Positions 1-15,562 of a stretch of 64,000 nucleotides of DNA are shown here, one piece after another. The DNA comes from Myxococcales bacterium (GTDB lineage Bacteria > Myxococcota_A > UBA9042 > JABWCM01 > BTVJ01), in the NCBI GenBank assembly GCA_045863395.1, contig BTVJ01000018.1, forward strand, positions 1 through 64,000. Direction: 5' to 3'. A program made the translations under genes and the position numbers. The notes beneath the pieces are model-generated. The model was not told the origin of the DNA, did no database searches, and was given only the letters and a program-made list of their open reading frames with translations. Within the stretch, counting starts at the first letter, position 1. Each line of letters opens with the position of its first letter.

Positions 1-60
1 CCGCCCCGCGGCCCCCCCCCACCACCCCCCCCCCCCCCTACACCCCCCCCCCCCCCCCCC
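1..60. repeat. Poly-C low-complexity tract at the window start
   Basis: Almost pure C runs; possibly a contig-end or sequencing artefact. Confidence 0.7.
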
Positions 61-130
61 GTCGGACGGGGGGCGCGCGGCGGACGGCGCGGCGCTCGCT
101 CTGCGCTCCGAGCGACGGTCCGCGGACCAA

Positions 131-162
131 CAAGGGACCAAGGGACCTAGGGCGCCAGGGAC
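131..162 (-). repeat. Tandem octamer GTCCCTTG x2 directly after the kinase-FGE stop codon, plus a degenerate copy before it
   Basis: + strand CAAGGGAC at 131-138 and 139-146, stop at 147-149, CAGGGAC at 156-162. Confidence 0.85.
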
Positions 163-2147
163 CTGGAGCAGCGGAAGCCGAGGACGCCGCCCGCGTAGGA
201 CGGGGCGTGGTAGACGCGATCGGACGCCCGCAGGTACGAGGCGACGTCGTAGAAGCCGCCGCCGCGCTTGACCCGGTCGGAGCCGCCTGACACCCACGCG
301 CTGCCGTCAACGGGAGCACCGTCGTAGCTCCCATGGTACGTGTCCTCCACCCACTCCCACACGTTCCCCGCCAGGTCGCACGCCCCCTGCGCGCTGTTCG
401 CGGCGCCCTTCGAGCACACATCCCACGTCGAGTCGCCACGCCCGCAGCCGTTGCCTCCACCGTCATTCATCACCGCGCGCGCGCACGTCGCCTTCTCAGG
501 GCCCCAAGGGTAGTCCTGGTCCCGGCCTCCGCTCCGCGCCGCATACTCCCACTCCGCCTCGCTCGGTAGACGCGCACCGGCCCATTCGCAGTACGTCTTC
601 GCCTGCTTCCAGTCCACGCAGTTCACCGGGTGATCCTCACGGCCCGATCTCCCCCAGTTGCAGCTCCCCCACGTGCCGGGAGCCGTACACGGGCCGGCCT
701 CCACGCACCGCCGGTAGTCTCCCACCGTCGTCTCGCTCTTCGCCAGCTCGAAGCCGCGGATCTGCACCACCCGGACCGGCCGCTCGTCCGAGTCGCCTGT
801 CGCCGACCCCATCTCATACGACCCGCTCGGCAGACGCACGTAGCCGTGGTTCGGGTCCCGAGATGAAACGCTCGCCGCGGCGCCCTCCCCGCGTCCGTGG
901 GATTGCAGCTCCAGGCCAGGTGCCTCGCCCGACGACCTATCCACGAGGTTCGTGCCAAGAAACAGTCCCCCCGCCACCACGACCACGGTCAACCCCACGA
1001 GCGCTGGCCGCGTCCAGTCGCGCCTCGGAATCGTTCGGGAAACCGGGCCGGGTACCACGTCCACCACGCGTGCAGGGGTGGGCTGCGGTGGAACGGGGGA
1101 CGGCGCCGGGACGACGTCGGGAGCCGGAGTGGGGCGCGGGGGAACCGGAAGCTGCTCCCCCCGCAGCGCCCGCTGGAAGTCCCGCGCGGTCGGGAACCGC
1201 TTCGCAGCATCCAAGCTCATCGCTCGCTCCACCGCGTCCGACACCGCCACCGAAACCCGCGCCACCTCCTTCAGCGGTGGCAGTCTCCGCCCTGCTTGCC
1301 GAAGAAGCCCATCCACCGGGGGCTCGCCGGCAAGCACCGTCCACAGCGTGGCACCGAGCGCGTACACGTCCGTCCGCTCGTCCTGGGGCGCGCGCGGGTC
1401 ATACTGCTCAGGCGGCGCATAGCCCACCGTCAGCACCTCCGAGAGCGATTGCGACGCGCTCCCCGTCGTGTACCGTGCCGCACCGAAGTCCAGCAGAACC
1501 ACCGGCCCGTCCTTGCTTACCATGATGTTCGCCGGCTTGATGTCGCGATGGATCAGCACCTTGTCCTGCTCGTCCCGCACCGAGTGCACCGCACACAGAC
1601 CGTCGAGCGCGGCGATGGCCACCGGGAGCGCGTCGCGCTCCTCAAGCGGCCTCATCACCCCGTCGTTTCCCGGCACCAGGAGCCCCTGCAGCGTCACCCC
1701 CTGAATGTACTCCATCACCATGTATCCGGTGCCGTTCTCCGCGAACACGTCGTAGATGGTCACGACGTTCGGGGCAGACCGGAGCTGCGAGACCATCTGC
1801 GCCTCACGGATGAAGCTCTCGAGTCCCAGCCGATACGCGTCCCCGTTGCCCCGCATCGGCTGCACCGTCACTCCGTCCCGGCTCCGTGTCGCTGTGCTCC
1901 GAGGATAGTACTCCTTGACCGCCACCCGCACCTTGAGCTGCAGGTCCCGCGCCAGGTAGGTGATGCCGAACCCACCCCGCCCCAGCTCCCGGCCCACGAG
2001 GTAGCGTTCCCGGACGATGCTCCCTGCCAGGAGCCGCATCGCGTCGTCCGGCCCGTCCCCCTCAGGGCGGTGCCCGCACCGCTGGCACAAGACGCCAGGA
2101 CCCGCCGTCTCGCAGCACTGGAAGCACACCCGCTCACGTCCGTTCAT
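147..2147 (-). CDS. Zn-ribbon + Ser/Thr protein kinase + TM + FGE-sulfatase (SUMF1/CLec-fold) domain protein
   Basis: N-terminal CFQCC..CQRC; kinase motifs LGRGGFG, VAVKE, HRDIKPAN, DFG, YAPPE; Pro-rich linker and TM; FGE motifs HPVNCVDW, RLPSEAEWEYAAR, DLAGNVWEW, RGG..GFRC. Start set to ATG 2147. Confidence 0.92.
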   Translation of the reverse strand: MNGRERVCFQCCETAGPGVLCQRCGHRPEGDGPDDAMRLLAGSIVRERYLVGRELGRGGFGITYLARDLQLKVRVAVKEYYPRSTATRSRDGVTVQPMRGNGDAYRLGLESFIREAQMVSQLRSAPNVVTIYDVFAENGTGYMVMEYIQGVTLQGLLVPGNDGVMRPLEERDALPVAIAALDGLCAVHSVRDEQDKVLIHRDIKPANIMVSKDGPVVLLDFGAARYTTGSASQSLSEVLTVGYAPPEQYDPRAPQDERTDVYALGATLWTVLAGEPPVDGLLRQAGRRLPPLKEVARVSVAVSDAVERAMSLDAAKRFPTARDFQRALRGEQLPVPPRPTPAPDVVPAPSPVPPQPTPARVVDVVPGPVSRTIPRRDWTRPALVGLTVVVVAGGLFLGTNLVDRSSGEAPGLELQSHGRGEGAAASVSSRDPNHGYVRLPSGSYEMGSATGDSDERPVRVVQIRGFELAKSETTVGDYRRCVEAGPCTAPGTWGSCNWGRSGREDHPVNCVDWKQAKTYCEWAGARLPSEAEWEYAARSGGRDQDYPWGPEKATCARAVMNDGGGNGCGRGDSTWDVCSKGAANSAQGACDLAGNVWEWVEDTYHGSYDGAPVDGSAWVSGGSDRVKRGGGFYDVASYLRASDRVYHAPSYAGGVLGFRCSRSLAP

Positions 2148-2332
2148 CGCATCACACTCCGCCCCTCCACAGGCCACCATCTCGCGTGGAACGATTGTAA
2201 CGCAGCACGGTGCGCCGCTGCGGCGTCTTGGCAGGGTCGAGCCGCGTCAAATTCTCGCGGAACTTCCGGTGAGCCGCGTCGTCGCCGTCGATGGCTCAGG
2301 TCATCCAGGCATCGACCCCTGTGAGGCCGTCC

Positions 2333-3367
2333 CTACGGCGCGCCCCGCTGCGCCTCTTCGAGCGCCGCCTTCATCTGCGCCTGGATGATCGCCTGCATGC
2401 AGGTGCTGACACCCTCGGTATCCGCCGCCTTCGCCAGACACGTCCGCGCGTCGTCGGGCCAGGTCTCGCACTGTTCGCTGAACGCGCGGAGCTCTTCCTC
2501 GGACGGGTCGCTCTCGCCCATGGCCCTGCCGATGCGCTTCATGTTCGTGACGACCGCGGAGCAGGAGCCGCTGTCGAGTTCCGCGGCGATCCGCGCTGCG
2601 GCGGTGGCCTCGGCGACCGCGAGCGCGGCCTCCGCAGCCGCTTCATCGGCGGCGCGCTGCGCCTCGTCGGCAGCCGCACGCGCCTCCTCCCCCGCCGCCT
2701 TCATCGCCTTCTCCATCTCCGCAGCCATGACCTTCGCGAAGCACGCCCCGACCGCGGCTTCGTCGCCAGCGTCGGCGAAGCAGTTCTTGACGTCGTCGGG
2801 CCACGCACGGCACTCCTCCAGGAACTTCTTCTTGTCGCTGTCCGTAGGTTCCTTCTCCCCAGCCTTGATGCCGAGATCGATCATCTTCCTCATGGCAGTC
2901 TCGCACGGGCCGCGCCGGGTACGGGAGGATCTGCTGGTCCCGCTGGCCGTCTCCAGCGCCACGAGCTTCGCGGTGCATGCGCCGGTGGCTGCGTCATCCT
3001 CGGCTTCTGCGTGGCATCGCTTGATGTCGTCGGGCCATGCGCTGCATTCCTCCAGGAATCGCGTCTTGTCCCCATCGCTGGGCCCTGCCGCACCCCACTT
3101 CACCCAGCTCGCCGACGCCCTCTTCAGTGCCCGTTTGCACGGGTCGGAAGACTCGAAGGCGCCGAGCCGCCAGGCCCCCAGCGCGACGACGAGGACCGCG
3201 ACAGCGCCGATCCCGATGTAGACAAGGTTGCTTCGGGGGCCCCGCTTCGCGCCCCCACCGGGGCCGACTTGCGGCGCGGCCGCCATCCCTACAAACGCCC
3301 CGCAGGTCCGGCAGTTGGCGCCGTCTCCAACGGGAGCGCGACAGATCGGGCAGACTCTCTCTCCCAT
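2333..3367 (-). CDS. Zn-ribbon + TM + three copies of a 4-Cys helical repeat; hypothetical membrane protein
   Basis: MGERVCPIC..CRTC, a hydrophobic helix, then three ~60-aa repeats with C..F.EEC..WPDD...C..C. Confidence 0.8.
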   Translation of the reverse strand: MGERVCPICRAPVGDGANCRTCGAFVGMAAAPQVGPGGGAKRGPRSNLVYIGIGAVAVLVVALGAWRLGAFESSDPCKRALKRASASWVKWGAAGPSDGDKTRFLEECSAWPDDIKRCHAEAEDDAATGACTAKLVALETASGTSRSSRTRRGPCETAMRKMIDLGIKAGEKEPTDSDKKKFLEECRAWPDDVKNCFADAGDEAAVGACFAKVMAAEMEKAMKAAGEEARAAADEAQRAADEAAAEAALAVAEATAAARIAAELDSGSCSAVVTNMKRIGRAMGESDPSEEELRAFSEQCETWPDDARTCLAKAADTEGVSTCMQAIIQAQMKAALEEAQRGAP

Positions 3368-3377
3368 GACCCTCACC

Positions 3378-4742
3378 TCACTCCGTCTCGTTGTCCACAA
3401 AGAATGCCGCGGACCCGTACATCGAGCACTCCACCCTGGTCGCCTGGGGGTCGCCCCAGCCGATGCGCTGGAACGTGGACCACTCCCCGTCGCAGTCCAG
3501 ATCGCCGTAGGCGCTCGCAGTCATTGTGGCGGCCTCGAGCGTACCCTGCGAATCATACGCGTAGCGGAAGTAATGAGGCCCGTTCATCTGAAAAGTGAGC
3601 GCTTCCCAGGACGGATGGTCGAGCCACACGGTGGGATCTCCCGGAAACCTCTGGTCGGGGTGGTCGCACGGTGATCCTTCGGGCGTAATCGGAGCCGGCG
3701 CAGGAAACTGGCACGGGAGCTTGGTGCCGTCGGCCGCGATTTGCGGCTTCGTGTAGTAGAACGCCGCCCCCTTGTAGATCTTGTCCAGCTCGTCGATGGC
3801 CTCCGTGGTCTTCGCGCGCCGTTGGTACTTGACGAAGGCGGGCACGGCGATCACAGCCGTCAGTGCCGAGTTGACCCGCGTCGACACGCGGACCATGGAC
3901 CCGCTGGACTCGATGGCGAGCCCCTCCACCACGGTCGAGATGTCGAAGTCCTTGGACTTCTTGAGCGCCTTCGCCCACTGCTCGCGCAGCGCGTCGCGCA
4001 CGTCATCGGCTTCGGCGGCGCTCACCAGCTCGACGACGGCCCGCACGTCCAGCCGCTCATCGACGCTCAGGCTGAGCGCACCGCCACGAACCCCTACGTC
4101 GCGGCGTGCGACCTCCTCCAGAACGTCGCCCAGCTCGGACGAGACGGAGGCCACCCACACGTGAGCGTCCGGGTCCACGGACTTCCGCATGGTCTGAATC
4201 GCGTCGTTCTGCATGATCGACCGCTCCTCCCCGCGAGAGACCCGCAGCGCGGCGGACACGAAGTCCGGGCTTCCGACGACGGTCACGTCGGACTCGACGA
4301 GCGCCACGGCCCCGGCTAGCCCGCTGAAGATCTCGGCCCCGTCTGCCTTGACGGGCTGACCAAGCTCAGTCAGTGCTGCCCGGAGCTTGTCGCGGTCAAA
4401 CCCACCAGAGAGGACACAGCCGCCTGCCTTCCGGCCGGTGTGAAAGCCGCACGCCACTGCGTCCAGCGTGTCGAGCTGAAAACCGAACTTCTGTCGTGCC
4501 TGCTCCATGCCGGCGGCGTCGAGGCCTGCTACCACCAAGGCCTCGTTGTCCTTCCACAGCTTGGAGGCGCGAATGGCCCGGACGTCGGCGCCTGCGACCA
4601 CCGTGACCGTGTCGGGGACATACTTGCCCGCCAGGGTCGCCGCGCGACCGCTTCCCCTCGAGAGGAACCAAATCAGAGCCACGGCGACCACGGCCGCGGC
4701 GACGCCGACCAGGATGACCTGGGGGGAGAGTTTCCACTTCAC
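3378..4742 (-). CDS. Membrane-anchored DUF3352-like domain fused to a C-terminal type IV pilin-like domain
   Basis: AAAGGAG RBS before GTG 4742; N-terminal TM; C-terminus IAVPAFVKYQRRAKTTEA...PHYFRY...AYGDLDCDG resembles myxobacterial pilins. Confidence 0.7.
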   Translation of the reverse strand: MKWKLSPQVILVGVAAAVVAVALIWFLSRGSGRAATLAGKYVPDTVTVVAGADVRAIRASKLWKDNEALVVAGLDAAGMEQARQKFGFQLDTLDAVACGFHTGRKAGGCVLSGGFDRDKLRAALTELGQPVKADGAEIFSGLAGAVALVESDVTVVGSPDFVSAALRVSRGEERSIMQNDAIQTMRKSVDPDAHVWVASVSSELGDVLEEVARRDVGVRGGALSLSVDERLDVRAVVELVSAAEADDVRDALREQWAKALKKSKDFDISTVVEGLAIESSGSMVRVSTRVNSALTAVIAVPAFVKYQRRAKTTEAIDELDKIYKGAAFYYTKPQIAADGTKLPCQFPAPAPITPEGSPCDHPDQRFPGDPTVWLDHPSWEALTFQMNGPHYFRYAYDSQGTLEAATMTASAYGDLDCDGEWSTFQRIGWGDPQATRVECSMYGSAAFFVDNETE

Positions 4743-4915
4743 GACGCGCTCCTTTGTTGCCGGCTTGGGGGTCCAACCAACCCACGCTGTGGCGGCTCCG
4801 ATGCCGACTCGCACATCCAGAGCGCCAACGGGTTGCACTGGGGCGTACTATGGTGCGTACCGGCCCGATTGACAACCAGAATGTCGCCCGTTCTCGGTCC
4901 CGGCCCCGCCGCTCG

Positions 4916-5689
4916 TCACCGCAGTGACGCAAGCAGCCGCAGCGCCTCCAGGTCTCCTTGTACTCGGCCCTCGCCGCTGCGCAGGGCGTCGAGCGCCCCG
5001 TCCGCGATGATGTACTCCGCCAAGGACGCGACCTTCTCGAGGCACCAGCAGGGCGCGGCCTTGAGCAGGCTGCCCGAGCCGGCGCAGTCATCGAGAGCGG
5101 TCCGCACCTCTCCAATCACGTCCGCGACCACGGCCACGAAGCGCCGGAGCCCCCCGACCGCTCCGTGGATGGGGCTCACGAGCTCCGTGCCACGCGCCGC
5201 CACAGCGGCGAGCGCGGCGAGGGACTCCGGTCCAGGGTCGCGCTCCGCCGCACCCAGGGCTCGCTTCAGGTCGTCGGAGTAGCCGGAGAGCTCGCGAATG
5301 TAGCGCCGCAGCTCTCGTGCGGCGGTCAGCTCCACCACGGCGGAGGACACAATCGCCGCGAGGCCCTTCCACCCAAGCTCGACGAACAACGCCTTGGGGT
5401 CGCCGACCTTGCCGAGCAGGTCCGCCGCGTCCTTGACCTTCAGGAGGTAATCGAGGATCCGCGTCGCCCTCTCGAAGAAGCCTGCGACGTCGCTGTAGGT
5501 CTCCAGGTGTTCGACCACGTGGCTTTCGCGGGCCTGCGCCACCGCCCACACTGCGCGGTCCTTCGGGCTCTCGGGTGGTGCGCCTGCGACGGTGCCGCCC
5601 TCTTTGGAGTCACATTGAGTGACGGCGAACGCTCCTGCGCCTGATGCCACCACCACGATGATCGCGACCACTCTCCATGCCTTGCTCAT
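4916..5689 (-). CDS. Hypothetical helical protein with an N-terminal hydrophobic anchor
   Basis: MSKAWRVVAIIVVVASG hydrophobic start; co-oriented with neighbours; no family recognised. Confidence 0.65.
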   Translation of the reverse strand: MSKAWRVVAIIVVVASGAGAFAVTQCDSKEGGTVAGAPPESPKDRAVWAVAQARESHVVEHLETYSDVAGFFERATRILDYLLKVKDAADLLGKVGDPKALFVELGWKGLAAIVSSAVVELTAARELRRYIRELSGYSDDLKRALGAAERDPGPESLAALAAVAARGTELVSPIHGAVGGLRRFVAVVADVIGEVRTALDDCAGSGSLLKAAPCWCLEKVASLAEYIIADGALDALRSGEGRVQGDLEALRLLASLR

Positions 5690-5752
5690 GCCCTGCCTCC
5701 ACCGTTTGTCATTACGAAGTCCGACACCTGAAACACGAAGTCTGCGCCCCAC

Positions 5753-8700
5753 CTACGGCGCGCTCTTGAAGTTCACGCCCACCGTGTCGGCGAAGACGCG
5801 GGTGGAGGTCGTGCCGCACCCAGCGCCGTTGCAGGCGCAACCGCCCCACGCGTCGTCGTAGAGAACCAGCGTGTGGGAGCCGGTCCCGAGGCTCACCCCG
5901 CTGAAGATCGCGAGGTTTCCGCCCATGGACGCCTTCTGGTTCCCACTCGCCTGCTTCTTCGCGGATCCGGTCAGGATGTAGTGGACCTCCTGGCTCAGCT
6001 TGTCGGCACCGAAGCCGCAGGCGTTGGCCTGGTCTGGGATCCACGCGTTGATGTCGTAGGTGCCCGCCTTCTTGATGGTGAACGTCCACCGGGCGTTGTA
6101 GCCGCCGTAGGCCGTCGGACTCGACGTGGACGGCACGCCGCAGTTTGAGGCGAACACCCAGTATGGAAGTCCCCCGCTCTGACCCTTGTGCCAGGACGTG
6201 CTCGCCGTGGATGAGCATGACAGGGAGGCGCTCGACGGGGTGTTGCCGTAGTAGAGGCTCGGCTGAACGGCAAACGAGGCGGCGCCGCAGTCTGACGGGC
6301 ACGTCTTGGGGGTTTCTGTAGACTCGCACGTCCCGTTGCCGCACTTGTCACCACAGTTGGCGGAGGTCACGCAGGAGCCGCCGGAGCACGTCTGCGAGGT
6401 GCTGCAGGAGCCTGTGACCGTCCATGCGGAGAAGCTCCCCCAGGCGCCGTTGCATGACCCACTCGCGCCGGAACAGGTGCGTTTGCGAGTCCGGACGCCC
6501 TTGTCGCCACCGCACGCCGCTCCACTGGGGCAACCCACCTCGGTCTCCTCGTCACACACGTGGGTGGACGGCCGGAACCAGCAGCCGTCGCAGCAGGCGC
6601 CGCTGCTGCACTCGCACTTCGGGGCATCGCAGTCCGCGGTGTAGGTGCAGCTCGTCTTGCCTGGGGTACACTTCTCGGTGTCGCTGCACGCGTCGACGAC
6701 ACTCCAGTCGCTCCAGACGCCGTATGGGCCATCGCACGCAGCGCTCGCCCCCGAACAGAGCCGGTCGCGAGTCTTCTGTGCCACGCTCTGGCCACACCCC
6801 GTGCCCCACGGACACCCCACCTCGGACTCCGCCTTCGGGGCGCACACCGTGCCGGCATTCTTGAAGTTGCACCCATCGCAGCAGGGCCCGGACGTACACT
6901 GACATGGCGCCGAGGAGCAGCCCGCGGAGGTCGTGCAGCTCGCGGGGGAGCCACCGCACACCTGCGAAGGGCCGCAGTCCGCATGCAGCGTCCAGGGCTT
7001 CCAGGGGCCGTAGTCTCCGCTGCACGCGCTGGTCGTGCCGTTGCAGAGCCGGTCCCGCGTGTGGATGGCCACGTCGGCCCCACACCCCGTCCCCCAGGTG
7101 CAGGCGACCTCGCTGCTCGCGTCCACCTTGCACACGGTCCCGGCCGCCTTCAGGTCACAGCCGTCGCAGCACGGGCCGTTGCTGCACGTACACTGGGCCG
7201 CGCTGCAGGCGCTCGTCGCCTTGCAGGAGCCGCTCGACGCGCACGCCTTGGTCGCCGGGCAGCTCTCGGCGACCGTCCAGCCCCCCCAGGGCCCGAGGGT
7301 GCCCGTGCAGGACGCCGACTTCCCCGAGCAGTGACGGGGGCGGCGTTTCACGCCGACGTCATCGCCGCAGCCCGTGCCCCAAGGGCATCCCCACTCGGCG
7401 TCGGCCTCCTCCTCGCACACCTGGGTCGAGGGAGCGAACTTGCCCCCGTTGCAGCAGACACCCGACGTACACTCTGCGACCGGGTGCGCCACGCAGGCGC
7501 CGCCGGAGCAGCCGTACTGACAGGCCTGCGTCACTGTGCCATGGCACCCGTTTGCGCCCTTCACGCAGGAGACCAGCGAGCCGCCGCTGCAGGAGACTCC
7601 GGGCGAGCACGTGTCGGTACACCCGGGCTTCGCGCATGTCCCGCCGGCACCGCAGTCGGTTCCGGGAGGGCACTTGCAGTCTGCGCACGTGGCGCAGGTC
7701 TCGGGAGGCGTGCAGACCCCGTCGCCGCACGTCGAGGCGGGGGCGTCCGGCATGATCGTCTGCCGCACGATGGCGCCCGCGAGCACGTAGGTCTTGACGT
7801 AGTCTTCCGACAGCCACCCGTAGCCCGCCTCTCCCCACCCCGTGCCCCAGGAGTTCTTGATGCGAAAGAACCACCGGTCCTTGTTGGAGGCGTTCTTGCG
7901 CCGCTCGTAGCCGACGAGCAGCACGGCGTGGGCCCAGGCCGAGGGAGTGCCTCCCACCGGCAGCTCCACCGTGCCTGTGTTGGTCCACGCGGTCGCCACG
8001 TGATTCATCGCGAGGATGACGTTGCTGTCGTCGCCCTCCGCGAGGTGCGCCCGCAGCACCTCGCTGGCCGCCGGGTTGGGGATCGCCTGGAACTTCTTGA
8101 CTCCGTGGACCCGGTGGGCCTCCCACCCGCTCTTGGGAGAAGACGCGGTTGCGGGCCAGTACTCCTCTGTCGTGAGCTTCGTGGACTGAGCGGCAAGCAG
8201 TGCCGCCTGAAGGGAGAGATCCTCGTGGGAGGCGGCGAGGTGCGCCTCGCTGACGTCGGGGAAGCTGCCGGACTCGTAGTGTGTCACCGCTTCGAGGCCC
8301 GCCACTACAGCGTAGTCGACGCAGGTCTGCCCGACCTGCTCGCGTACCGGAGTCTGAAAGGGGGCGTGGTTGACCTTCTGCGGCAGCTCGGGCCCGAAGA
8401 CGGGCGGCTCTGCCCACCAGGAGTCGGGCAGGTCCCCCCACACCTGCGCGGAGGCCGGCACAAGCTGGCGCGGGATGCCGCCGACAATCACGATACCGGT
8501 GTCGTCGTCTACGGCAGGCGGCTCATACAGGCTCTCGTCCCCGACGGTGCCTCGCTCGCAGCCGCCCAGCACCAGCAGCGCGGCGAGGCCAGCGAGCAGA
8601 CGCTGGCGCACGAGGAGCCACCGCTGGCGGCGCCGCACGAACAGCAGGAGCCACAGCAGGGACGGAGCGGGGGACGCCGTGCCGCACCCGCCTGTCTGCT

Positions 8701-9823
8701 GCGTCTGATCGGCGGCCGCCGTCTGCGGAGCCTGCGCGGTGCCGGAGTCGCCCGCGGGCAGCGCCGTGGGGTCGTGGCCGACGGCGGTGGCAGGGGCGAT
8801 GCGGATGGCGTCCACGGCGAGGCGGGGACCCGATGAGCCGACATAGGGCTCGCCCGTGTTGTCGTTGAGACGTAGGGCAGCGCCCGGCGCGAACGAAAAG
8901 GTCCCGAGGGAGACCATCTCGCCCCGGTGCTTCGACTGGTCGACCTCCACCCACTGCTCACCGGGGAGCCACAGCTTGTACTTCGCCTTCTTCGATAGGT
9001 TCGGCAGGTCTGGCACGTAGATCTCGATGGTGTACTGGCCCGCCTGTTCGATGCCCAGGTACCACTTGGAGAAGCTGTCGGGCTGCCCCGCGTCGGTCGT
9101 GTAGGTCGTGAACGCGTGGCCGCCGGACCCCGCCGCGTCCCACCAGTACTTGCCGCCGCGCTCGACACAGGCGTCCGTCTCTTCGATGAAGGTCAGACCG
9201 GTCGATGAGACCGCACAGGGCTCCAAAGGCTTCTCGTGTGCCTTGATGAAGACCGAGGGCTCGAGATAGCTCGCCAGAATCGCGTCCTTCGCCTTCGGCC
9301 AGTGGCTAGGAGGGAGATCCTTGGTCCGTACCTCCAGATGCAGGTGGGCGCTGTACTCGTTGTCGTGACCCCTGCCGATGGTGCCGACCAGCGATCCGAC
9401 GGCGACCGTGTCGCCCTTCGAGACGGTCATCTCCTTCAGATGAGCGTACACGCTCCACACGTTCTCCCCGTTCGGCAGCTCGTGCTTCACGACGACGATG
9501 TTGCCCCAGCCCGTGCCGAAGGCCCCGGCCGCCGTGACCTCGCCGCTGCCGATGGCGTAGACGGGGTCGCCCTCGTCAGAGTTTCCACCACCGTTGCCGT
9601 TCCAGTCCTCGCCTGGGTGGTAGACTCCTGGCTTCTCATAGGCGAGCCACTTCCACCCCGCCGTCTTGTTGTACCCGCTGGCGGTCGGCGGGTTCAGCGG
9701 GAGCTGGAATCGATCCGCCGTCAGGGCTCCTTGGCGCGTAGCGAACGCGGGCTCCAGTGGACCTCCGCAGCCTGGAGAAGACACCCAGAGAGTCAAACAG
9801 AGCGCCGTCATGGTGAATCGCAT
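5753..9823 (-). CDS. Secreted multidomain protein: M23 peptidase + beta-sandwich + internal MYXO-CTERM-like motif + C1 (papain-like) cysteine protease + Cys-rich disintegrin-like repeats
   Basis: GGAGG RBS before ATG 9823; M23 motifs HPGED and HLH; C1 motifs EQVGQTC, HAVLLVGY, KNSWGTGWGEAGY; about four CxSGxCCDGC..CPWGTGCG repeats. Confidence 0.85.
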   Translation of the reverse strand: MRFTMTALCLTLWVSSPGCGGPLEPAFATRQGALTADRFQLPLNPPTASGYNKTAGWKWLAYEKPGVYHPGEDWNGNGGGNSDEGDPVYAIGSGEVTAAGAFGTGWGNIVVVKHELPNGENVWSVYAHLKEMTVSKGDTVAVGSLVGTIGRGHDNEYSAHLHLEVRTKDLPPSHWPKAKDAILASYLEPSVFIKAHEKPLEPCAVSSTGLTFIEETDACVERGGKYWWDAAGSGGHAFTTYTTDAGQPDSFSKWYLGIEQAGQYTIEIYVPDLPNLSKKAKYKLWLPGEQWVEVDQSKHRGEMVSLGTFSFAPGAALRLNDNTGEPYVGSSGPRLAVDAIRIAPATAVGHDPTALPAGDSGTAQAPQTAAADQTQQTGGCGTASPAPSLLWLLLFVRRRQRWLLVRQRLLAGLAALLVLGGCERGTVGDESLYEPPAVDDDTGIVIVGGIPRQLVPASAQVWGDLPDSWWAEPPVFGPELPQKVNHAPFQTPVREQVGQTCVDYAVVAGLEAVTHYESGSFPDVSEAHLAASHEDLSLQAALLAAQSTKLTTEEYWPATASSPKSGWEAHRVHGVKKFQAIPNPAASEVLRAHLAEGDDSNVILAMNHVATAWTNTGTVELPVGGTPSAWAHAVLLVGYERRKNASNKDRWFFRIKNSWGTGWGEAGYGWLSEDYVKTYVLAGAIVRQTIMPDAPASTCGDGVCTPPETCATCADCKCPPGTDCGAGGTCAKPGCTDTCSPGVSCSGGSLVSCVKGANGCHGTVTQACQYGCSGGACVAHPVAECTSGVCCNGGKFAPSTQVCEEEADAEWGCPWGTGCGDDVGVKRRPRHCSGKSASCTGTLGPWGGWTVAESCPATKACASSGSCKATSACSAAQCTCSNGPCCDGCDLKAAGTVCKVDASSEVACTWGTGCGADVAIHTRDRLCNGTTSACSGDYGPWKPWTLHADCGPSQVCGGSPASCTTSAGCSSAPCQCTSGPCCDGCNFKNAGTVCAPKAESEVGCPWGTGCGQSVAQKTRDRLCSGASAACDGPYGVWSDWSVVDACSDTEKCTPGKTSCTYTADCDAPKCECSSGACCDGCWFRPSTHVCDEETEVGCPSGAACGGDKGVRTRKRTCSGASGSCNGAWGSFSAWTVTGSCSTSQTCSGGSCVTSANCGDKCGNGTCESTETPKTCPSDCGAASFAVQPSLYYGNTPSSASLSCSSTASTSWHKGQSGGLPYWVFASNCGVPSTSSPTAYGGYNARWTFTIKKAGTYDINAWIPDQANACGFGADKLSQEVHYILTGSAKKQASGNQKASMGGNLAIFSGVSLGTGSHTLVLYDDAWGGCACNGAGCGTTSTRVFADTVGVNFKSAP

Positions 9824-9918
9824 CAGGTCCTCCCGTGCAGCTCGCGCAGGTCTCATCCCACCGGTCCCAAGAGTGCGCTGTGGTCCTTCTCTGACACGCC
9901 GGCTCTCCAGTCCAGAGG

Positions 9919-10536
9919 GTGAGCGTGAACCCACCAATCGAGTTCGTCAACCACCAATTTCCGAGGACCCTGTCGGGGTTCGGAGCCACGCAGGAGCGGC
10001 CTGGCCTCTACCGCCTGCCGCGGACGCTTGCTACTGTGATCGTCGCGGTGCATCGCCTGCCGCGGACGGTGGCGACGCTGCCCGCACGGCTGATGGGCCG
10101 CGGACGCGTGCTCCGCGCGGCACGGGCGGACCTGGCGGCGCTCCCGCCCCAGGCCCCGCTTGTGCTGCCACTGCGAGACCTGCTGGTCCGCTGGCGCATC
10201 GAGCTGCAGAGGGCCAAGGTGCTGACCCCCGACGAGGAGGAGTTCGTCATGGAGACCGAGAGCGCATACGACACCTGGCGAAAGCAGATCCTGCAGCAAG
10301 GGCGTGACGAGGGGCGCACCGAGGGGCGTACGGTGGGGCGCGCCGAAGGCGAAGTGGCAGCGGCGCTCCGAGTGCTTGCCGCGCGCTTCGGAGAAGTGCC
10401 TCCCGCTCTGGTGGCCAGGGCCCGCTCCATCACCGACCCCGTGGCCGCAAGCCGCCTCGTCGACATCGCCCTTCAGGCACCAACCCTCGCCGCGGTTTCC
10501 GCCGCGCTGGCGTCTGCACCTCCCAGTGACCACTGA
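9919..10536 (+). pseudogene. N-terminally truncated Rpn/DUF4351-like (YhgA/transposase_31-related) gene
   Basis: C-terminal QQGRDEGRTEGRTVGRAEG repeats and LAARFGEVP are typical of the family; the N-terminal PD-(D/E)XK nuclease part is not visible. Confidence 0.6.
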
Positions 10537-10825
10537 TCGCATGCCGCAGAGGGAGAAGAGCATGGCGCGATCCCTCCGTTGAGGAGCCGCTGCTGCTCCG
10601 TCACCTCGCCGTCCCGAGGGACGCTGCCGGAGCAGTCTGGACGACCGCCGCGTCAACGACGCCACGCCCCGGAAGTACCCCCGTCGGCGCGCTGCGCTGC
10701 CTCCGGGTGTGCTTCCGGGGCGTCGGGCTGGCTCGCGCTCCTACAGGGGCCGATTCCCGCCGTCTCTGCTCGGGATGACGTCGCCTTCACGCACGTGCGC
10801 CGAGCGCCGTGTGAGACTCGGCTGC

Positions 10826-10856
10826 CAAGGGATCAAGGGATCAAGTGTCAAGGGAT
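10826..10856 (-). repeat. Tandem octamer ATCCCTTG x3 spanning and following the second kinase-FGE stop codon
   Basis: + strand CAAGGGAT at 10826-10833, 10834-10841 and 10849-10856, with CAAGTGT between the last two. Confidence 0.85.
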
Positions 10857-13220
10857 CGACCTGGCGGCACGAAACCCCACGACGAAGTACCGCCCGGCGG
10901 GATCGTTCCTGACGCGGAGCGCCGCACGCACGTTGCGCGCGTCCGCGCCCCAGGAGCCGCCGCGGACCACGCGGTCCGCGCCCGTGGAGCTGCACACGGG
11001 ACCCCCGACGTCGGTCACCGGGCCGGTCTCGTACTCGGCGTAGCAGCCACCGGTCCACTCGAACACGTTGCCCAGCATGTCATACAGGCCATAGGCGTTC
11101 TTCGACTTCCCGCCCGCGGGCTGCGGGCCGCAGCGAGTCACCTGGGGGTTCGCCTTCCACGACCAATCGGAGCAGTCAACTGCACCATCGTAGGAGGGCG
11201 CAGCGTTGTCCACGTACCACGCAAGTCCGTCGAGCACACGCAGGTCGCCCCGCCACTCCCCAGACAGGTCACCCGCATACGTCGCGGTGGTCGTTTCCCC
11301 CCGCGCCGCATGCTCCCACTCCGCCTCCGTCGGCAGACGGTAGCCCTGGCAACCGAGGCCCTTGAACTTCACAGACGTGCAGGTGTAGTCTCCATGGCAG
11401 CCCCGCCCGCCGTTCTCGCTCGACGGGCAACCGCCTCCCAACGTCCCCGTACACCCGCCCAGGTCGTAACACTCCTCCACGCCCTCCGACCGCGACAGCG
11501 CGTTCAGGTAGTACAGCGCCTCCCACCACGACACCCGCTCCACCGGGCACCTGGCCCCACACCCCTTGAAATACGACGGGTTGCTCCCCATCAGCGACTC
11601 CCACTCCCCCTGCGTCACCTCCGTTGCCTTCAGATAGAACGCTCCTCGAAGCGTCACCGGGTGCTGCACCTCCTCGTCGAAACGACTCTCCTCCTTCGTC
11701 GTCCCCCCCGTCCCGTCCGGCGACCCCATCGTGAACGTCCCCTTCTCGATGCGCACGTAGCCCTTCGGTGGAGCCGGGTCCGCAGGGCGCTCCTCCGGGG
11801 GTTCCGGCGTCCTCTGTACCTGCTGCGCGGGCTCCGGCGGAGCTGGCAGACTCTCGGGCGGGCCAACTCTCTCGGCCGGCGCCGAAGATGCCTCGGCCGC
11901 TCCACTCCCCGACGAGTCGCCGCCGGTTCCAGAGGGCTGAGCCAACTTCGTACCCAGCAGAATCAGGCCTGCCCCCACGGCGATGACCGCGGACGCGACC
12001 AGCGCGACTCGCCCCCAGTCCCGGGCCGGCTGCGGATGCGGCGCGGCGCGGTCCGCCGCCTCCCGCCGCGCAGGCTCCGGTGCGGGACCGGGCCGCCGCT
12101 CGGCCAAACGCGCCGGCTCCGGGGATGAGGCCGGCCGATCAGGAGGCCACACGGGGCGCGGCGGAGGAGGCGGGTCCGGCACGAGCTCGGCGACCGGCAC
12201 GGGCGCCGGGGACGGAGGCACCACCCGGCGAATGGCCCCCTGGAGAGCCTGCTGAAAGGCCCGCGCGGTCGGGAACCGCTGCGCCGGGTCCAGGCTCATC
12301 GCACGCTCCACCGCGTCCGACACGCCCGTCGAGACCCGCGCCACCTCCTTCAGCGGTGGCAGCCGCCGCCCAGACTGGCGAACGAGCGCCTCAACCGGCG
12401 TCTCCCCGGCCAGCACCGTCCACAGCGTCGCGCCCAGGGCGTAGACGTCGGTCCGCTCGTCCTGCGGCGCGCGCCGGTCATACTGCTCCGGCGGCGCGTA
12501 CCCCTCCGTCACCACCTCCGACAAGGACTGCGACACGCTCCCGGTCGTGTACCGCGCCGCCCCGAAGTCCACCAACACCACCGGACCGTCACGGCTCACC
12601 ATGATGTTCGCCGGCTTGATGTCCCGGTGGATCAGCACCTTGTCCTGCTCTTCCCGCTTGGAATGCACCGCACGGAGGCCGTCCAGCACCGCGATGCCAA
12701 TGGGGACCGCCTGATCCTCCGGGAGCGGCCCCCTCCCCGCCTGGATGCTCTCGGACAGAAGCGCCTGCAACGTCACTCCCTGCACGTACTCCATCACCAT
12801 GTAGCCGGTGCCGTTCTCCTCGAAGAAGTCGTACACCGTCACCACGTTAGGCGCGCTCTCGAGCTGGGCCACCATCTCTGCCTCGCGGAGGAAGCACCGA
12901 AGCCCGATGCCGTAGGCGTCCGCGCCACCGCGCACTGGCTGCACCGTGACACCGTTGCGGCTCCTCGTCGCCGAACTCCGCGGGTAGTACTCCTTGATTG
13001 CCCGCCGCACCTTGAGCTTGAGGTGTCGCGCCAGGTACGTGATACCGAAGCCGCCCCAACCGAGGTCCCGCCCCACCAGGTACGTCCCCTGCAACACGGT
13101 CCCCATCTCGAGGCGGTTGGCGTCGTCGCTCCCGTCACCCCCGGGCGCCCGGCCGCATCGCTGGCACCGATCCCCCGGCCCAGCCGTCTGGCAGCACTGA
13201 AAGCACACTCTCTCACCCAT
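10848..13220 (-). CDS. Zn-ribbon + Ser/Thr protein kinase + TM + FGE-sulfatase (CLec-fold) domain protein, paralog of 147-2147
   Basis: LGWGGFG, HRDIKPAN, DFG, YAPPE; TM; TEVTQ, PVERVSW, RLPTEAEWEHAAR, YDMLGNVFEW, RVVRGGSW..VGFR. Confidence 0.92.
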   Translation of the reverse strand: MGERVCFQCCQTAGPGDRCQRCGRAPGGDGSDDANRLEMGTVLQGTYLVGRDLGWGGFGITYLARHLKLKVRRAIKEYYPRSSATRSRNGVTVQPVRGGADAYGIGLRCFLREAEMVAQLESAPNVVTVYDFFEENGTGYMVMEYVQGVTLQALLSESIQAGRGPLPEDQAVPIGIAVLDGLRAVHSKREEQDKVLIHRDIKPANIMVSRDGPVVLVDFGAARYTTGSVSQSLSEVVTEGYAPPEQYDRRAPQDERTDVYALGATLWTVLAGETPVEALVRQSGRRLPPLKEVARVSTGVSDAVERAMSLDPAQRFPTARAFQQALQGAIRRVVPPSPAPVPVAELVPDPPPPPRPVWPPDRPASSPEPARLAERRPGPAPEPARREAADRAAPHPQPARDWGRVALVASAVIAVGAGLILLGTKLAQPSGTGGDSSGSGAAEASSAPAERVGPPESLPAPPEPAQQVQRTPEPPEERPADPAPPKGYVRIEKGTFTMGSPDGTGGTTKEESRFDEEVQHPVTLRGAFYLKATEVTQGEWESLMGSNPSYFKGCGARCPVERVSWWEALYYLNALSRSEGVEECYDLGGCTGTLGGGCPSSENGGRGCHGDYTCTSVKFKGLGCQGYRLPTEAEWEHAARGETTTATYAGDLSGEWRGDLRVLDGLAWYVDNAAPSYDGAVDCSDWSWKANPQVTRCGPQPAGGKSKNAYGLYDMLGNVFEWTGGCYAEYETGPVTDVGGPVCSSTGADRVVRGGSWGADARNVRAALRVRNDPAGRYFVVGFRAARSIP

Positions 13221-13498
13221 CTGAATGGCTCCTTGCAGCGCCTGAAGGCTCCGGGCTCGTCTGGCCCGAAGCGGATGCCCACCTCCGCGCGCTGGACCAC
13301 GCCTCGCCTCAGGCCGAGCATGGCCATCCCGCCGGCGTGTGTCAACGGCTTACTGCCCCCCCGGACGCCCCCTCAAGTCCGACCCACCCCGCCCCTCGCG
13401 TGAATTCTCGCAATTTGGGTCTTGCCGCCAGTGACACCTCGGTCCATAGTGGCAGGTCCGGGCGAATGGTGCCCCCGCGCGCATCGAGGAGGGTGGCC

Positions 13499-15562
13499 TT
13501 GACTGGAACCACGCGCATCTGCCTGCGCTGCTGCGAACCGGCGGGACCCACGACGGTTTGCCGCCACTGCGGTGGGAACCCCGCGACCACGGACGCAGAC
13601 GACGCCCTCTGGCTCCCCGCAGGGACCCAGGTAGGCCGCTATTTCATCGGTCGCGTCCTGGGCCAGGGGGGCTTCGGCATCACCTACCTGGCAAGGGATC
13701 TGACCCTCGACACCCGCGTCGCCATCAAGGAGTACATGCCGCGGGACGCCGCCTCCCGCAGCCGGGATGGCCGCACCGTCGTCTCCCGGCCCGCCGAGGT
13801 CTTCATCAAGGGACTCCACGGCTTCCTGGACGAGGCCAGGGCACTGGCGAAGCTGCGCGACGCTCCGAGCGTGGTGACCATCCACGACGTGGTGGAGGCA
13901 AACGGCACCGGTTACATGGTGATGGAGTACCTGGACGGATGGACCCTGGCGGACCTGCTCGGCCACCACGGCGGGCGCCTCCGCTGGTCGCAGACTGCTC
14001 CCATCGCGGTGGCGGTCCTCGACGGTCTCCGCGCGGCCCACGCAGCGGGCCTCATCCACCGGGACGTGAAGCCGTCGAATGTCGTCGTGACCCGCGAGGA
14101 GCAGGTGAAGCTCCTCGACTTCGGCGCCGCCCGGCAGCTCACGGGCTACGAGACCCGCTCCGTCTCCGCCGTGGTCACCGACGGATTCGCGCCGCCGGAG
14201 CAGTATGACCCGCGCACTGTCCAGGACGCCAGAACGGACGTCTACGGCGCGGGAGCCACCTTCTGGACCATGCTGACCGGCTCCCCGCCGCCGCCCTCGC
14301 TCGGGCGTGGGGACGACGACCACACAACCGCGCTCCGCGTCGCCGCGCCGGACGTGCCGCCTCACGCGGCCCAGGCCATCGACCGGGCGCTGCGGGTGCG
14401 TCCCGCGGACCGATTCGCCAGCGCGCGGGAGTTCCAGGTTGCGCTCGGGGGCGAGGCGCCGAAGCCGGACAGCAGGGTGGTCGTCACCGACGGGGAGCGG
14501 GAGCGAAAGGATTCCCGAAGACGCGCAGCGCTGTGGATTGGCGCGGGCGCCGTGGCCGCGGCTGGCCTCCTCGTGATCGGTGCCCTTCTGCTTGGAGACG
14601 GGCTCTGGCCGGCAGGATGGGGATCAGAGCCCCAGGTTGTCGAGGGCGTCGACAAGGGCCCGGTGCCCGAAAAGGAGACACCGCGCACGGTCCAGCTCGT
14701 GAAGTCCTACATCCCGGCAGGACATGACATGGTCGTGGCAGTGGACCTGAAGGGGCTCCTGACGACCGACGCGTGGACTGCGCTCGGCCTGGAGATTGAG
14801 AAGTTCATCGAGGACGACGAGGACGTCCAACGAATGTTCCGTGAGACGGGTATCACACTGAGCACCTTCACGGGGTTCGCCATGGGACTGACGTTCGGTA
14901 GCGAGGGCTTGACCGGCGACTACCGCAATGGAGTCCTCGTTCTCGAGGGCTCTTGGGACGCCCGTCGCCTTCGCACGTTCCTGGTCGACTCGAACGGCGG
15001 GGGTCTTTCAGAGGAGGTCCGCCACGGGGTGCCAACCCTTGTCAACGCGTCGAGCGATACGGGCCTGGCCATGCCGGATGGAGCGCTCATCTTTGGAAAC
15101 CCAATCGCGTCGATGGACAGTGCGGTCCGGGTCAAGACAGGCGGGGCAGCGTCGATCACAGACGACCTGGGACTCCGAACGATTCGGGACCACGTCGACG
15201 AGACCGCGACGGCCTGGGTAGCGATTGCCATTCGACAGGGCAGCCTGGGCGACGTTCCCGAGCCCCTGAGCAACGCAACGCACGCGGCGGCCAGCCTCGA
15301 CCTTCGCACCGGCCTCAAGCTGCGCCTCGCATTGCGCATGGGGACGGCGGAGGACGCCGCTCTCGTCGAGTCGCAGCTTCATCAAGCGTTGGGGTTGGCA
15401 GCCTCCATGGCAGCAGACGTGCCTCGGATTGGCGGCGAGCTGAGCGCGATGCTGACGGGAGCGCGTATCTCATCTCGAGGCCGTGTCTTCCTGACCGAGG
15501 TCTCCGCAACGCCAGAACAGACACGAGCGCTGCTGCGGGAGGCGAGCCGGTCGATGAACTGA
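13499..15562 (+). CDS. Zn-ribbon + Ser/Thr protein kinase + TM + DUF3352-like extracytoplasmic domain
   Basis: CLRCC..CRHC; LGQGGFG, HRDVKPSN, DFG, FAPPE; TM; C-terminal region resembles the N-terminal domain of 3378-4742. Start (TTG after GAGGAGG) is uncertain. Confidence 0.85.
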   Translation: MTGTTRICLRCCEPAGPTTVCRHCGGNPATTDADDALWLPAGTQVGRYFIGRVLGQGGFGITYLARDLTLDTRVAIKEYMPRDAASRSRDGRTVVSRPAEVFIKGLHGFLDEARALAKLRDAPSVVTIHDVVEANGTGYMVMEYLDGWTLADLLGHHGGRLRWSQTAPIAVAVLDGLRAAHAAGLIHRDVKPSNVVVTREEQVKLLDFGAARQLTGYETRSVSAVVTDGFAPPEQYDPRTVQDARTDVYGAGATFWTMLTGSPPPPSLGRGDDDHTTALRVAAPDVPPHAAQAIDRALRVRPADRFASAREFQVALGGEAPKPDSRVVVTDGERERKDSRRRAALWIGAGAVAAAGLLVIGALLLGDGLWPAGWGSEPQVVEGVDKGPVPEKETPRTVQLVKSYIPAGHDMVVAVDLKGLLTTDAWTALGLEIEKFIEDDEDVQRMFRETGITLSTFTGFAMGLTFGSEGLTGDYRNGVLVLEGSWDARRLRTFLVDSNGGGLSEEVRHGVPTLVNASSDTGLAMPDGALIFGNPIASMDSAVRVKTGGAASITDDLGLRTIRDHVDETATAWVAIAIRQGSLGDVPEPLSNATHAAASLDLRTGLKLRLALRMGTAEDAALVESQLHQALGLAASMAADVPRIGGELSAMLTGARISSRGRVFLTEVSATPEQTRALLREASRSMN

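Follow-up and report, generated by a model that had tools for sequence, protein, structure and literature searches.

Across cellular and viral DGRs, most target genes are followed by a short periodic array that their templates lack, and sequence comparison suggests that this array probably serves, at the level of DNA, as a recipient signal that the machinery of the DGR itself reads. The window, by which we mean the whole 64,000-nucleotide stretch that was analysed (positions 1 to 64,000 of contig BTVJ01000018.1 from a Myxococcales bacterium), carries two such arrays built on the octamer RTCCCTTG. The octamer is the form taken in one lineage by a degenerate periodic array, with units of 7-9 nt and usually four of them, between the variable region (VR) and a hairpin. 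The features concerned are as follows.

1 to 54, no strand: poly-C run at the contig end; the copies on contigs C68 and C2 continue otherwise.
55 to 114, minus strand: GC-rich hairpin region behind array 1, a long stem truncated by the contig end.
131 to 162, minus strand: array 1, behind gene 1; four 8-nt units in register, by sequence reading.
147 to 2180, minus strand: gene 1, a Ser/Thr kinase with a C-terminal FGE-sulfatase-type CLec, 677 aa.
150 to 290, minus strand: likely variable region of gene 1; approximate boundaries from paralog comparison, without a template.
9919 to 10536, plus strand: neighbouring 205-aa ORF, no Pfam hit; context only.
10790 to 10822, minus strand: small dyads that follow array 2, no stronger than expected by chance (z -0.09).
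10826 to 10856, minus strand: array 2, behind gene 2; four units of 8, 7, 8 and 8 nt, overlapping the stop codon.
10848 to 13220, minus strand: gene 2, a Ser/Thr kinase with an FGE-sulfatase-type CLec, 790 aa; a DGR target without an adjoining RT.
10857 to 10984, minus strand: gene 2 variable region, delimited by its homology with a template contig from runs X2 and X8.

The sequence-only reading had reported tandem octamers at the stops of both CLec genes, and every coordinate was confirmed by re-reading: RTCCCTTG lies on the minus strand at 131-138, 139-146, 10826-10833, 10834-10841 and 10849-10856. In register, array 1 reads GTCCCTGG-CGCCCTAG-GTCCCTTG-GTCCCTTG (162-131), its first two units coding and degenerate (162-147) and its last two perfect copies of GTCCCTTG (146-131). 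Array 2 reads ATCCCTTG-ACACTTG-ATCCCTTG-ATCCCTTG (10856-10826), and its first unit (10849-10856) overlaps the TGA of gene 2. The window holds eight RTCCCTTG in total, against a shuffle mean of 2.7. The other three, at 13692, 13807 and 52729, are each single, so that the motif occurs in tandem behind no other window gene, as had been claimed; a domain search also confirmed the absence of CLec from the third kinase (13337-15562).

By the features of its sequence, gene 2 is a DGR target: a non-coding TR differs from it mainly at adenines, and variation between strains lies mainly in the VR, chiefly at template adenines. Template contigs matching 10857-10984 were found in run X2 (DNA) and run X8 (an RNA library), and the listed differences from gene 2 fall at coding-strand adenines in 8/8 cases for X8 and 9/11 for X2. 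The 345-nt contig in X8 is a weak hint that the template is expressed, and a weak one because X8 consists of contigs only. An allele present in X3 and X7 carries 13 changes, all inside 10888-10976 (10 at a template A, 1 elsewhere and 2 not assignable), and 13 of the 15 differences between the 2,921-nt X3 contig and the window lie within 89 nt of the VR; this strain variation rests on two alleles. The gene 2 template was not found in the host assembly by blastn or by an A-tolerant scan, which covered the first 4 of 12 VRs, both window genes included. The intact DGR on contig C33 carries a different TR, and contig C68 holds an RT::Avd deletion remnant. The 205-aa ORF beside gene 2, which presumably resembles the C-terminal part of Rpn/YhgA-type proteins, has five copies in the genome, every one on contigs with DGR pieces.

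Homology between gene 2 and its template ends at 10857, one base ahead of the first octamer. An array that starts where template homology ends might be a footprint of homing, or might pair with the DGR spacer RNA, but this explanation is largely refuted and we regard it as extremely improbable: the unit is missing from template flanks, the number of units is the same in alleles differing at 13 VR sites, and the mean complementarity score to spacers (6.9) is barely higher than that of shuffled sequence (6.6). RNA pairing, whether with the spacer or with upstream RNA, had been considered as a candidate role for the array and was rejected for negligible complementarity. No substitution or indel is listed for array 2 in X3 and X7, and the four runs compared list no indel across 10700-11300; in two of them the array is covered together with a different VR allele. 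Copy-number variation between strains, a property of the cyanobacterial intergenic heptamer simple repeats known as STRR, was thus not found at gene 2 in this small sample.

Gene 1 is likely to be a target as well. It is one of three paralogs (on C18, C32 and C162) with a common 3' block of ~140 nt, among which 21 of 23 variable positions are at codon positions 1-2. Runs differ at sites 190, 205, 208 and 209, and 205 and 208 each show several letters. No template for this family was found in the assembly by blastn and the A-tolerant scan, or among the run matches listed.

The dyads that had been flagged behind both genes are present, but neither of the two stretches folds more stably than shuffled sequence (z -0.81 and -0.09), and the C32 and C162 paralogs do not keep the palindrome at 117-128. 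The dyad at 55-73 forms the end of a longer hairpin, of which the second arm lies at the start of C68 (C68:1-62, L004). Counting that arm, the GC stem 3' of the VR reaches z -3.2 for gene 1, compared with -0.09 for gene 2; across the DGR loci described below, a hairpin within 60 nt was found at 54 of 92, against 4.2% in shuffles. The poly-C run that follows the gene 1 hairpin is probably an assembly artefact.

In the host genome (G000, the sole member of its family in the genome set compared), the pattern TCCCTTG.{0,10}TCCCTTG occurs at five sites, four of them at CLec stops. The enrichment implied by the sequence-only reading was found: TCCCTTG pairs follow 4/38 CLec genes and 0/9,585 other, crudely called ORFs, with a Fisher p of 2e-10 that is overstated because three of the four positives are paralogs in one family. 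Homogeneous arrays across intergenic DNA behind any type of gene, as in STRR, were not seen at these 9,585 other ends, and the units are degenerate. All six CLec ends with at least two CCTT[GT] units have DGR evidence; the pair C23:94590 and C97:55 has 26 of 31 differences at codon positions 1-2, yet no such array. Shared inheritance of a duplicated 3' block accounts for part of the array pattern.

Beyond this genome, we scored the flanks of cellular loci for at least three units, using a rule devised after the cellular set had been inspected and first setting aside L242, whose match is truncated, and two L226 pairs that are spurious. Such arrays were present in 44/56 VR flanks, 0/55 TR flanks, 14/424 other ORF ends and 4.9% of shuffles. 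Model-free autocorrelation of the cellular flanks gave peaks at lags 7-9 and 14-16. The same rule, applied out-of-sample to viral loci, scored 45/73 VR flanks and 0/73 TR flanks, although the cellular and viral counts are not independent because the loci are related. The 3' flank of the template, where a variant of the octamer had been thought worth seeking, is without the array. Four cyanobacterial plasmids carry it at 8/8 targets. Across 12 genomes, it follows 15/19 template-matching CLec ends, including some on contigs apart from the RT's, compared with 17/117 other CLec ends (p 4e-8; matches more than 25 aa from a stop were left out beforehand, and six CLec loci each were covered for G412, G028 and G306, with 88, 27 and 65 matches). 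The commonest number of units is four (46/92 loci), and the first unit lies a median of 8 nt past the end of homology. Phage Mushu has an internal VR, and there four units remain in frame within the gene. Fewer than three units were scored at 12/56 cellular and 28/73 viral targets, and the array is absent from BPP-1, ANMV-1, two crAss-like phages and Bacteroides phage Versailles; it is therefore not a universal DGR need.

Because the array stands at most target ends and at no examined template, it is likely to be part of a "mutate here" signal, and from this correlation we infer that it serves in targeting. The proposal that it is a cis signal marking remote targets holds in that the array tracks DGR targets and both window genes lie away from any RT; it does not hold as to remoteness, since cassette targets bear arrays as well and the array is not exclusive to remote ones. 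An RNA-level 3'-end signal of the target mRNA, such as a Rho loading site, a terminator or a stability element, would also fit a stretch that is pyrimidine-rich on the sense strand and sits between the stop codon and a GC hairpin. We consider this quite unlikely, given how rarely the array follows other genes of the same loci or CLec genes without a template match, and given its presence in cyanobacteria, which are not known to have Rho. Its placement also argues against an RNA signal: in Mushu it is mid-gene, behind the internal VR, and elsewhere avd or RT often lies close downstream in the same direction.

The exact octamer, as distinct from the periodic array, is only one lineage's variant, and as a DGR marker across bacteria it was rejected. 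The 83 CCCTTG arrays examined came from 80 metagenome loci out of at least 120. Three were at CLec ends (two by HMM, one by eye), and the 80 other arrays were mostly ordinary, unrelated intergenic repeats. A phylum scan matched 56/401 genomes, and a subset of 30 loci and 20 regions contained nine period-7/8 arrays, in eight genomes, at visible CLec stops, and four more plausibly at CLec stops where the region was cut or unclear. The arrays in G401, G044, G210, G243 and G217:C54 within this subset were not at CLec stops, and the period-9 arrays were coding repeats.

The abundance of 7-8-nt CCCTTG arrays in intergenic DNA raises the possibility that the arrays behind targets are neutral slippage repeats of the STRR type, with a single origin behind an ancestral target and later spread by hitchhiking on duplications of CLec 3' ends. 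Decayed array-bearing 3'-end copies at C2:199036 and C32:70058 are in line with this, as is the over-representation of heptamer repeats in many bacteria, described in the available part of PMC4692102. We nevertheless think it unlikely. Position is fixed and the mode stays at four units across phyla and phages, the Mushu array persists in a coding frame, and gene 2 alleles have no listed change in length. Adjacent 7-mers are identical in only 11/321 cases in DGR arrays, so that the period is kept while the sequence drifts, compared with 125/162 identical adjacent units in generic arrays, the latter chosen by exact pattern. In generic arrays, the purine strand is also the commoner one after the stop (17 versus 6 of 49).

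Unit type followed the RT rather than the host. On a quick tree with long branches and with host labels taken from MAGs, 35/35 CTG-type loci fall inside one 40-row RT clade (SH-aLRT 87). This clade includes four non-Chloroflexota hosts with CTG arrays, and one Chloroflexota locus with an RT outside it has a YTTK-type array. A G-quadruplex on the opposite strand was rejected by inspection because CTG-type units have no G-tracts. CTG is the start triplet of E. coli DnaG, and the CTG units match it; the reader of the array might accordingly be a replication factor of the host, for instance primase, for which the clustered units would be sites to begin an Okazaki fragment immediately 3' of the annealed cDNA. 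Position and strand agree with the lagging-strand model set out in the accessible text of PMC12875486. This reading is very unlikely in our estimation, as unit type tracks RT clade across host phyla, one host phylum can have two types, and the S9 legend of the same source reports that homing of BPP-1, which has no array, was unchanged by DnaG overexpression.

Returning to a recipient signal read by the DGR itself, we propose that a complex of RT, Avd and cDNA, or a factor associated with that complex, would contact the repeated CTG/YTTK units during homing, on the coding strand directly 3' of the IMH and probably where it is single-stranded at a fork. In BPP-1, the sequence directly 3' of the VR is needed for efficient homing (PMC3240598, in part), and homing favours sites oriented so that the target strand serves as the lagging template (PMC12875486, in part). 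Such contact could distinguish recipient from template, and a block of VR, array and hairpin copied behind another gene could create a new remote target. Pentameric Avd is our first guess for the array-binding protein, a tentative one that may well be wrong. It is quite possible, if somewhat short of probable, that a large cellular and phage branch of DGRs has a third element at its target sites that has so far gone undescribed: a periodic DNA tag of four units, evolving together with the RT lineage, which is bound by RT-Avd, licenses dispersed genes and keeps co-resident DGRs on their own gene sets. Telling recipient from template and locating remote targets are unexplained parts of retrohoming, and the model system, BPP-1, has no array. 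A tag that is short, conserved and specific to a lineage permits a direct mutational test. The array also helps to identify true targets when an assembly has no template, as for gene 2, and may be required for moving array-bearing DGRs into engineering hosts.

The arrangement resembles the BPP-1 target site, which consists of an IMH ((GC)14 plus 21 bp) and a downstream GC hairpin/cruciform with a GRNA loop (available parts of PMC3240598 and PMC5758913). In both, an element at the VR 3' end is absent behind the TR and is followed by a GC-rich hairpin, and the most frequent loops at the loci here include GATA and GGTA. BPP-1 differs in having, in those sources, a 4-bp spacer of immaterial sequence, and it has no periodic array, whereas here the interval holds ~30 nt of periodic units; DGR spacers span 4-34 bp, and the accessible text of PMC3240598 describes no repeat in them. 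An IMH is an imperfect TR-VR repeat; the array, which is situated past the end of TR homology and corresponds to nothing in the TR, is distinct from it. The cellular CLec DGRs of multicellular bacteria share kinase and FGE-sulfatase CLec targets remote from the RT, a cassette like that on C33 (CLec-HRDC-Avd-RT-TR) and decayed DGR pieces; their unnamed cis features are inferred or are MITE-like inverted repeats, and in the literature searched, including the available parts of these three reports, we found no description of a periodic array behind the VR (PMC7517822, PMC10907252, PMC4143802). Heptamer simple repeats of the STRR kind are likewise intergenic, with 7-8-nt units and often four of them (PMC4692102, in part), but they are scattered, homogeneous and variable in length, whereas the DGR arrays are fixed in position, degenerate and, within a genome, nearly confined to targets.

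Two Ser/Thr kinase genes in the window encode CLec domains, which are absent from the third kinase:

147-2180, minus strand: gene 1, Ser/Thr kinase with a C-terminal FGE-sulfatase-type CLec domain
10848-13220, minus strand: gene 2, Ser/Thr kinase with a C-terminal FGE-sulfatase-type CLec domain

A check of the sequence bore out, coordinates included, the RTCCCTTG octamers and dyads that a sequence-only reading had placed behind both CLec stop codons. Both arrays, read in register, consist of four units and start in or at the stop codon. In the genome (8.77 Mb, 71% GC, 186 contigs), which to judge by tree neighbours is probably that of a myxobacterium-like organism, tandem TCCCTTG occurs five times, four of them at CLec stops. 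The proposed enrichment was found, at 4 of 38 CLec ends (three of the four being paralogs) versus 0 of 9,585 crudely called other ORF ends; a looser CCTT[GT] pattern, counted by gene end, gave 6/38 versus 19/9,585. The dyads are present, but the folding of the small ones is no better than that of shuffled sequences (z = -0.81 and -0.09). The dyad at 55-73 forms the tip of a long hairpin; the second arm of that hairpin lies at the start of contig C68 (z = -3.2). Window positions 1-54 are probably an artefact. All three members of the gene 1 family run into contig ends within this GC hairpin (window 1-114; C32:1-89; C162:6303-6390), so such targets and cassettes may be systematically missing from short-read assemblies.

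DNA of the window was also found in sequencing runs from other studies, which tie gene 2, and probably gene 1, to a mutation-targeting retroelement (DGR). Runs X2 (DNA) and X8 (RNA library) hold a separate contig matching 10857-10984 only. Because its listed differences are all or nearly all at coding-strand adenines (8/8 in X8, 9/11 in X2), this contig is the template (TR) of gene 2. The TR homology stops at 10857, the base preceding the first octamer. Runs X3 and X7 share a gene 2 allele with 13 changes, every one within 10888-10976, out of 15 in the whole 2,921-nt X3 contig. Compared with the TR, whose letters at unlisted sites of the variable region (VR) were deduced from no difference being listed there, 10 of the 13 are on adenines, one is not and two have no assignment. 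The array behind gene 2 is unaltered in this allele. A second copy of 10819-10855 in X2, with a different flank, is perhaps a second target. In gene 1, comparison of three paralogs gives 23 variable positions, 21 of them at codon positions 1-2, and sites 205 and 208 carry several letters among runs; the gene is only a likely DGR target because no TR was seen among the matches listed from the runs. The genome assembly contains the TR of neither gene. Separately, X3 and X7 show dense strain differences at 4736-4910, at the 5' end of ORF 3378-4838 and in the adjoining intergenic stretch.

DGR parts and remnants occur elsewhere in this genome:

C33: DGR cassette with CLec target (ending in a CCCTTT-type array), HRDC, Avd, RT and adenine-specific TR
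C47: four CCCTTG units at a CLec end, and a partial TR at a distance of 200 nt
L004:63-938 (C68): in-frame fusion of an RT N-terminus with an Avd C-terminus, immediately after the gene 1 family hairpin
C2:199036-199174: orphan 3'-end copy with array
C32:70035-71003: kinase ORF whose end has just the final ~55 nt of a CLec VR, together with array and hairpin (3'-end copy at C32:70058)

The fusion on C68 is a DGR decayed by deletion, and the C2 and C32 ends have the look of target cassettes that were grafted or have decayed. The genome has two YhgA-like (PF04754) nuclease genes (C68:1008-2045, C47:9276-10278), and both adjoin decayed DGR pieces; every contig with one of the five copies of the window 9919-10536 ORF family also bears DGR remnants or a CLec end with an array; and between RT and TR on C33 lies an ORF that encodes 8-aa repeats and has no Pfam match. 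These genes may help disperse target ends. The CLec ends C23:95070-95255 and C97:430-615 (83% alike, 26/31 differences at codon positions 1-2) show VR-like variation, yet no array. A homogeneous GACCTTG-type heptamer array lies at two contig ends (C93:~29880-29930, C112:1-70), away from CLec stops.

A GTDB scan centred on RTs yielded 80 loci, and 57 of them have TR-VR pairs. The exact octamer, first proposed as the signal, proved to be a single variant of a broader array. Pyrimidine-rich units recur periodically in the VR flanks and are either CTG-type (for example TTCTGA) or YTTK-type (CCCTTG, CCTTTT); the autocorrelation of the flanks peaks at lags of 7-9 and of 14-16. At one target per locus, at least three units were found in 44/56 VR flanks, 0/55 TR flanks (the suggested check on the template's 3' end), 14/424 other ORF ends and 4.9% of shuffles, under a rule set on these cellular data themselves and applied unchanged to later sets. 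That the array is a homing footprint or RNA-pairing element is most improbable. Where the TR is known (12 genomes), 15/19 TR-matching CLec ends had the array versus 17/117 others (p = 4e-8), several of the 17 looking like targets of other DGRs. FGE-sulfatase matches number 88 in G412 (L250) and 66 in G056, and many of them stand in tandem within ORFs that reach ~7,500 aa. TR-matching ends on contigs other than that of the RT carry the array (G416 C271 and C599, G407 C16, G410 C45); cassette targets also carry it. Contrary to the first proposal, then, the array is no mark of remote targets in particular.

Arrays were present at 92 of 133 loci, with four units in 46 of the 92. The first unit lies a median of 8 nt past the end of TR homology, and a hairpin of at least 6 bp follows within 60 nt at 54/92 versus 4.2% of shuffled sequences. 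Neighbouring units of the same array are almost never identical. Taken alone, a CCCTTG array is in most cases an ordinary intergenic repeat (3/83 at CLec ends, for arrays from 80 of at least 120 metagenome loci); a duplicated 3' block takes the array along, and the loci are related. That the arrays are hitchhiking slippage repeats is unlikely. A phylum scan for arrays gave mixed results, and roughly one DGR target in five to one in three falls under the three-unit threshold.

Under the unchanged rule, viral loci (80, yielding 73 pairs of flanks) had at least three units in 45/73 VR and 0/73 TR flanks, and plasmids of Fischerella, Nostoc, Anabaena and Microcystis had the array at 8/8 targets; it was seen by eye in Prosthecochloris and Acaryochloris. 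Among 18 named phages examined, 16 gave a TR-VR pair: five had at least three units (ARM81mr, Lagaffe, Saumur, BalMu-1, Mushu), four a degenerate array by eye (ZX4290, VHML, Brigit, Toutatis), two were ambiguous (Magia, QDWS) and five had none (BPP-1, ANMV-1, cr55_1, cr50_1, Versailles). In Mushu, the VR is internal to the gene and four units run in frame within the protein. An mRNA 3'-end signal is quite unlikely; cyanobacteria are not known to have Rho.

A quick RT tree placed the 35 CTG-type loci without exception in a single 40-row clade, which takes in three Acidobacteriota hosts and one Thiotrichaceae host; one Chloroflexota locus with its RT outside has the other unit type. That unit type follows the RT tree is suggestive only, because kin share labels. 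CTG is the start triplet of E. coli DnaG, and host primase sites are a very unlikely account.

We favour the reading that the array, placed between IMH and hairpin, probably serves at the DNA level as a signal that marks the recipient and would be read by the machinery of the DGR itself. What we observed is its position, its target-versus-template asymmetry, its breadth, its RT-tree clustering and its persistence in coding frame. A protein would bind the repeats of the coding strand, perhaps at the stage when this strand is the single-stranded lagging template; an orientation bias of homing is described in PMC12875486. Avd, pentameric according to bioRxiv 10.1101/2023.10.23.563531, would be a first guess.

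No account of a periodic array behind the VR turned up in literature searches or in keyword passages of PMC10907252, PMC7517822, PMC5758913, PMC3240598, PMC12875486, PMC8144416, PMC4143802, PMC6642488, PMC3521204, PMC4692102 and the bioRxiv study. Such flanks are printed in PMC3240598 Fig. 5, PMC4143802 Fig. 6C and PMC5758913 Supplementary Data, which may mark it. The array is real and, apparently, an undescribed part of DGR target sites. It would act much as the downstream target element of BPP-1 does, but is distinct from the IMH of BPP-1 because it has no TR counterpart.
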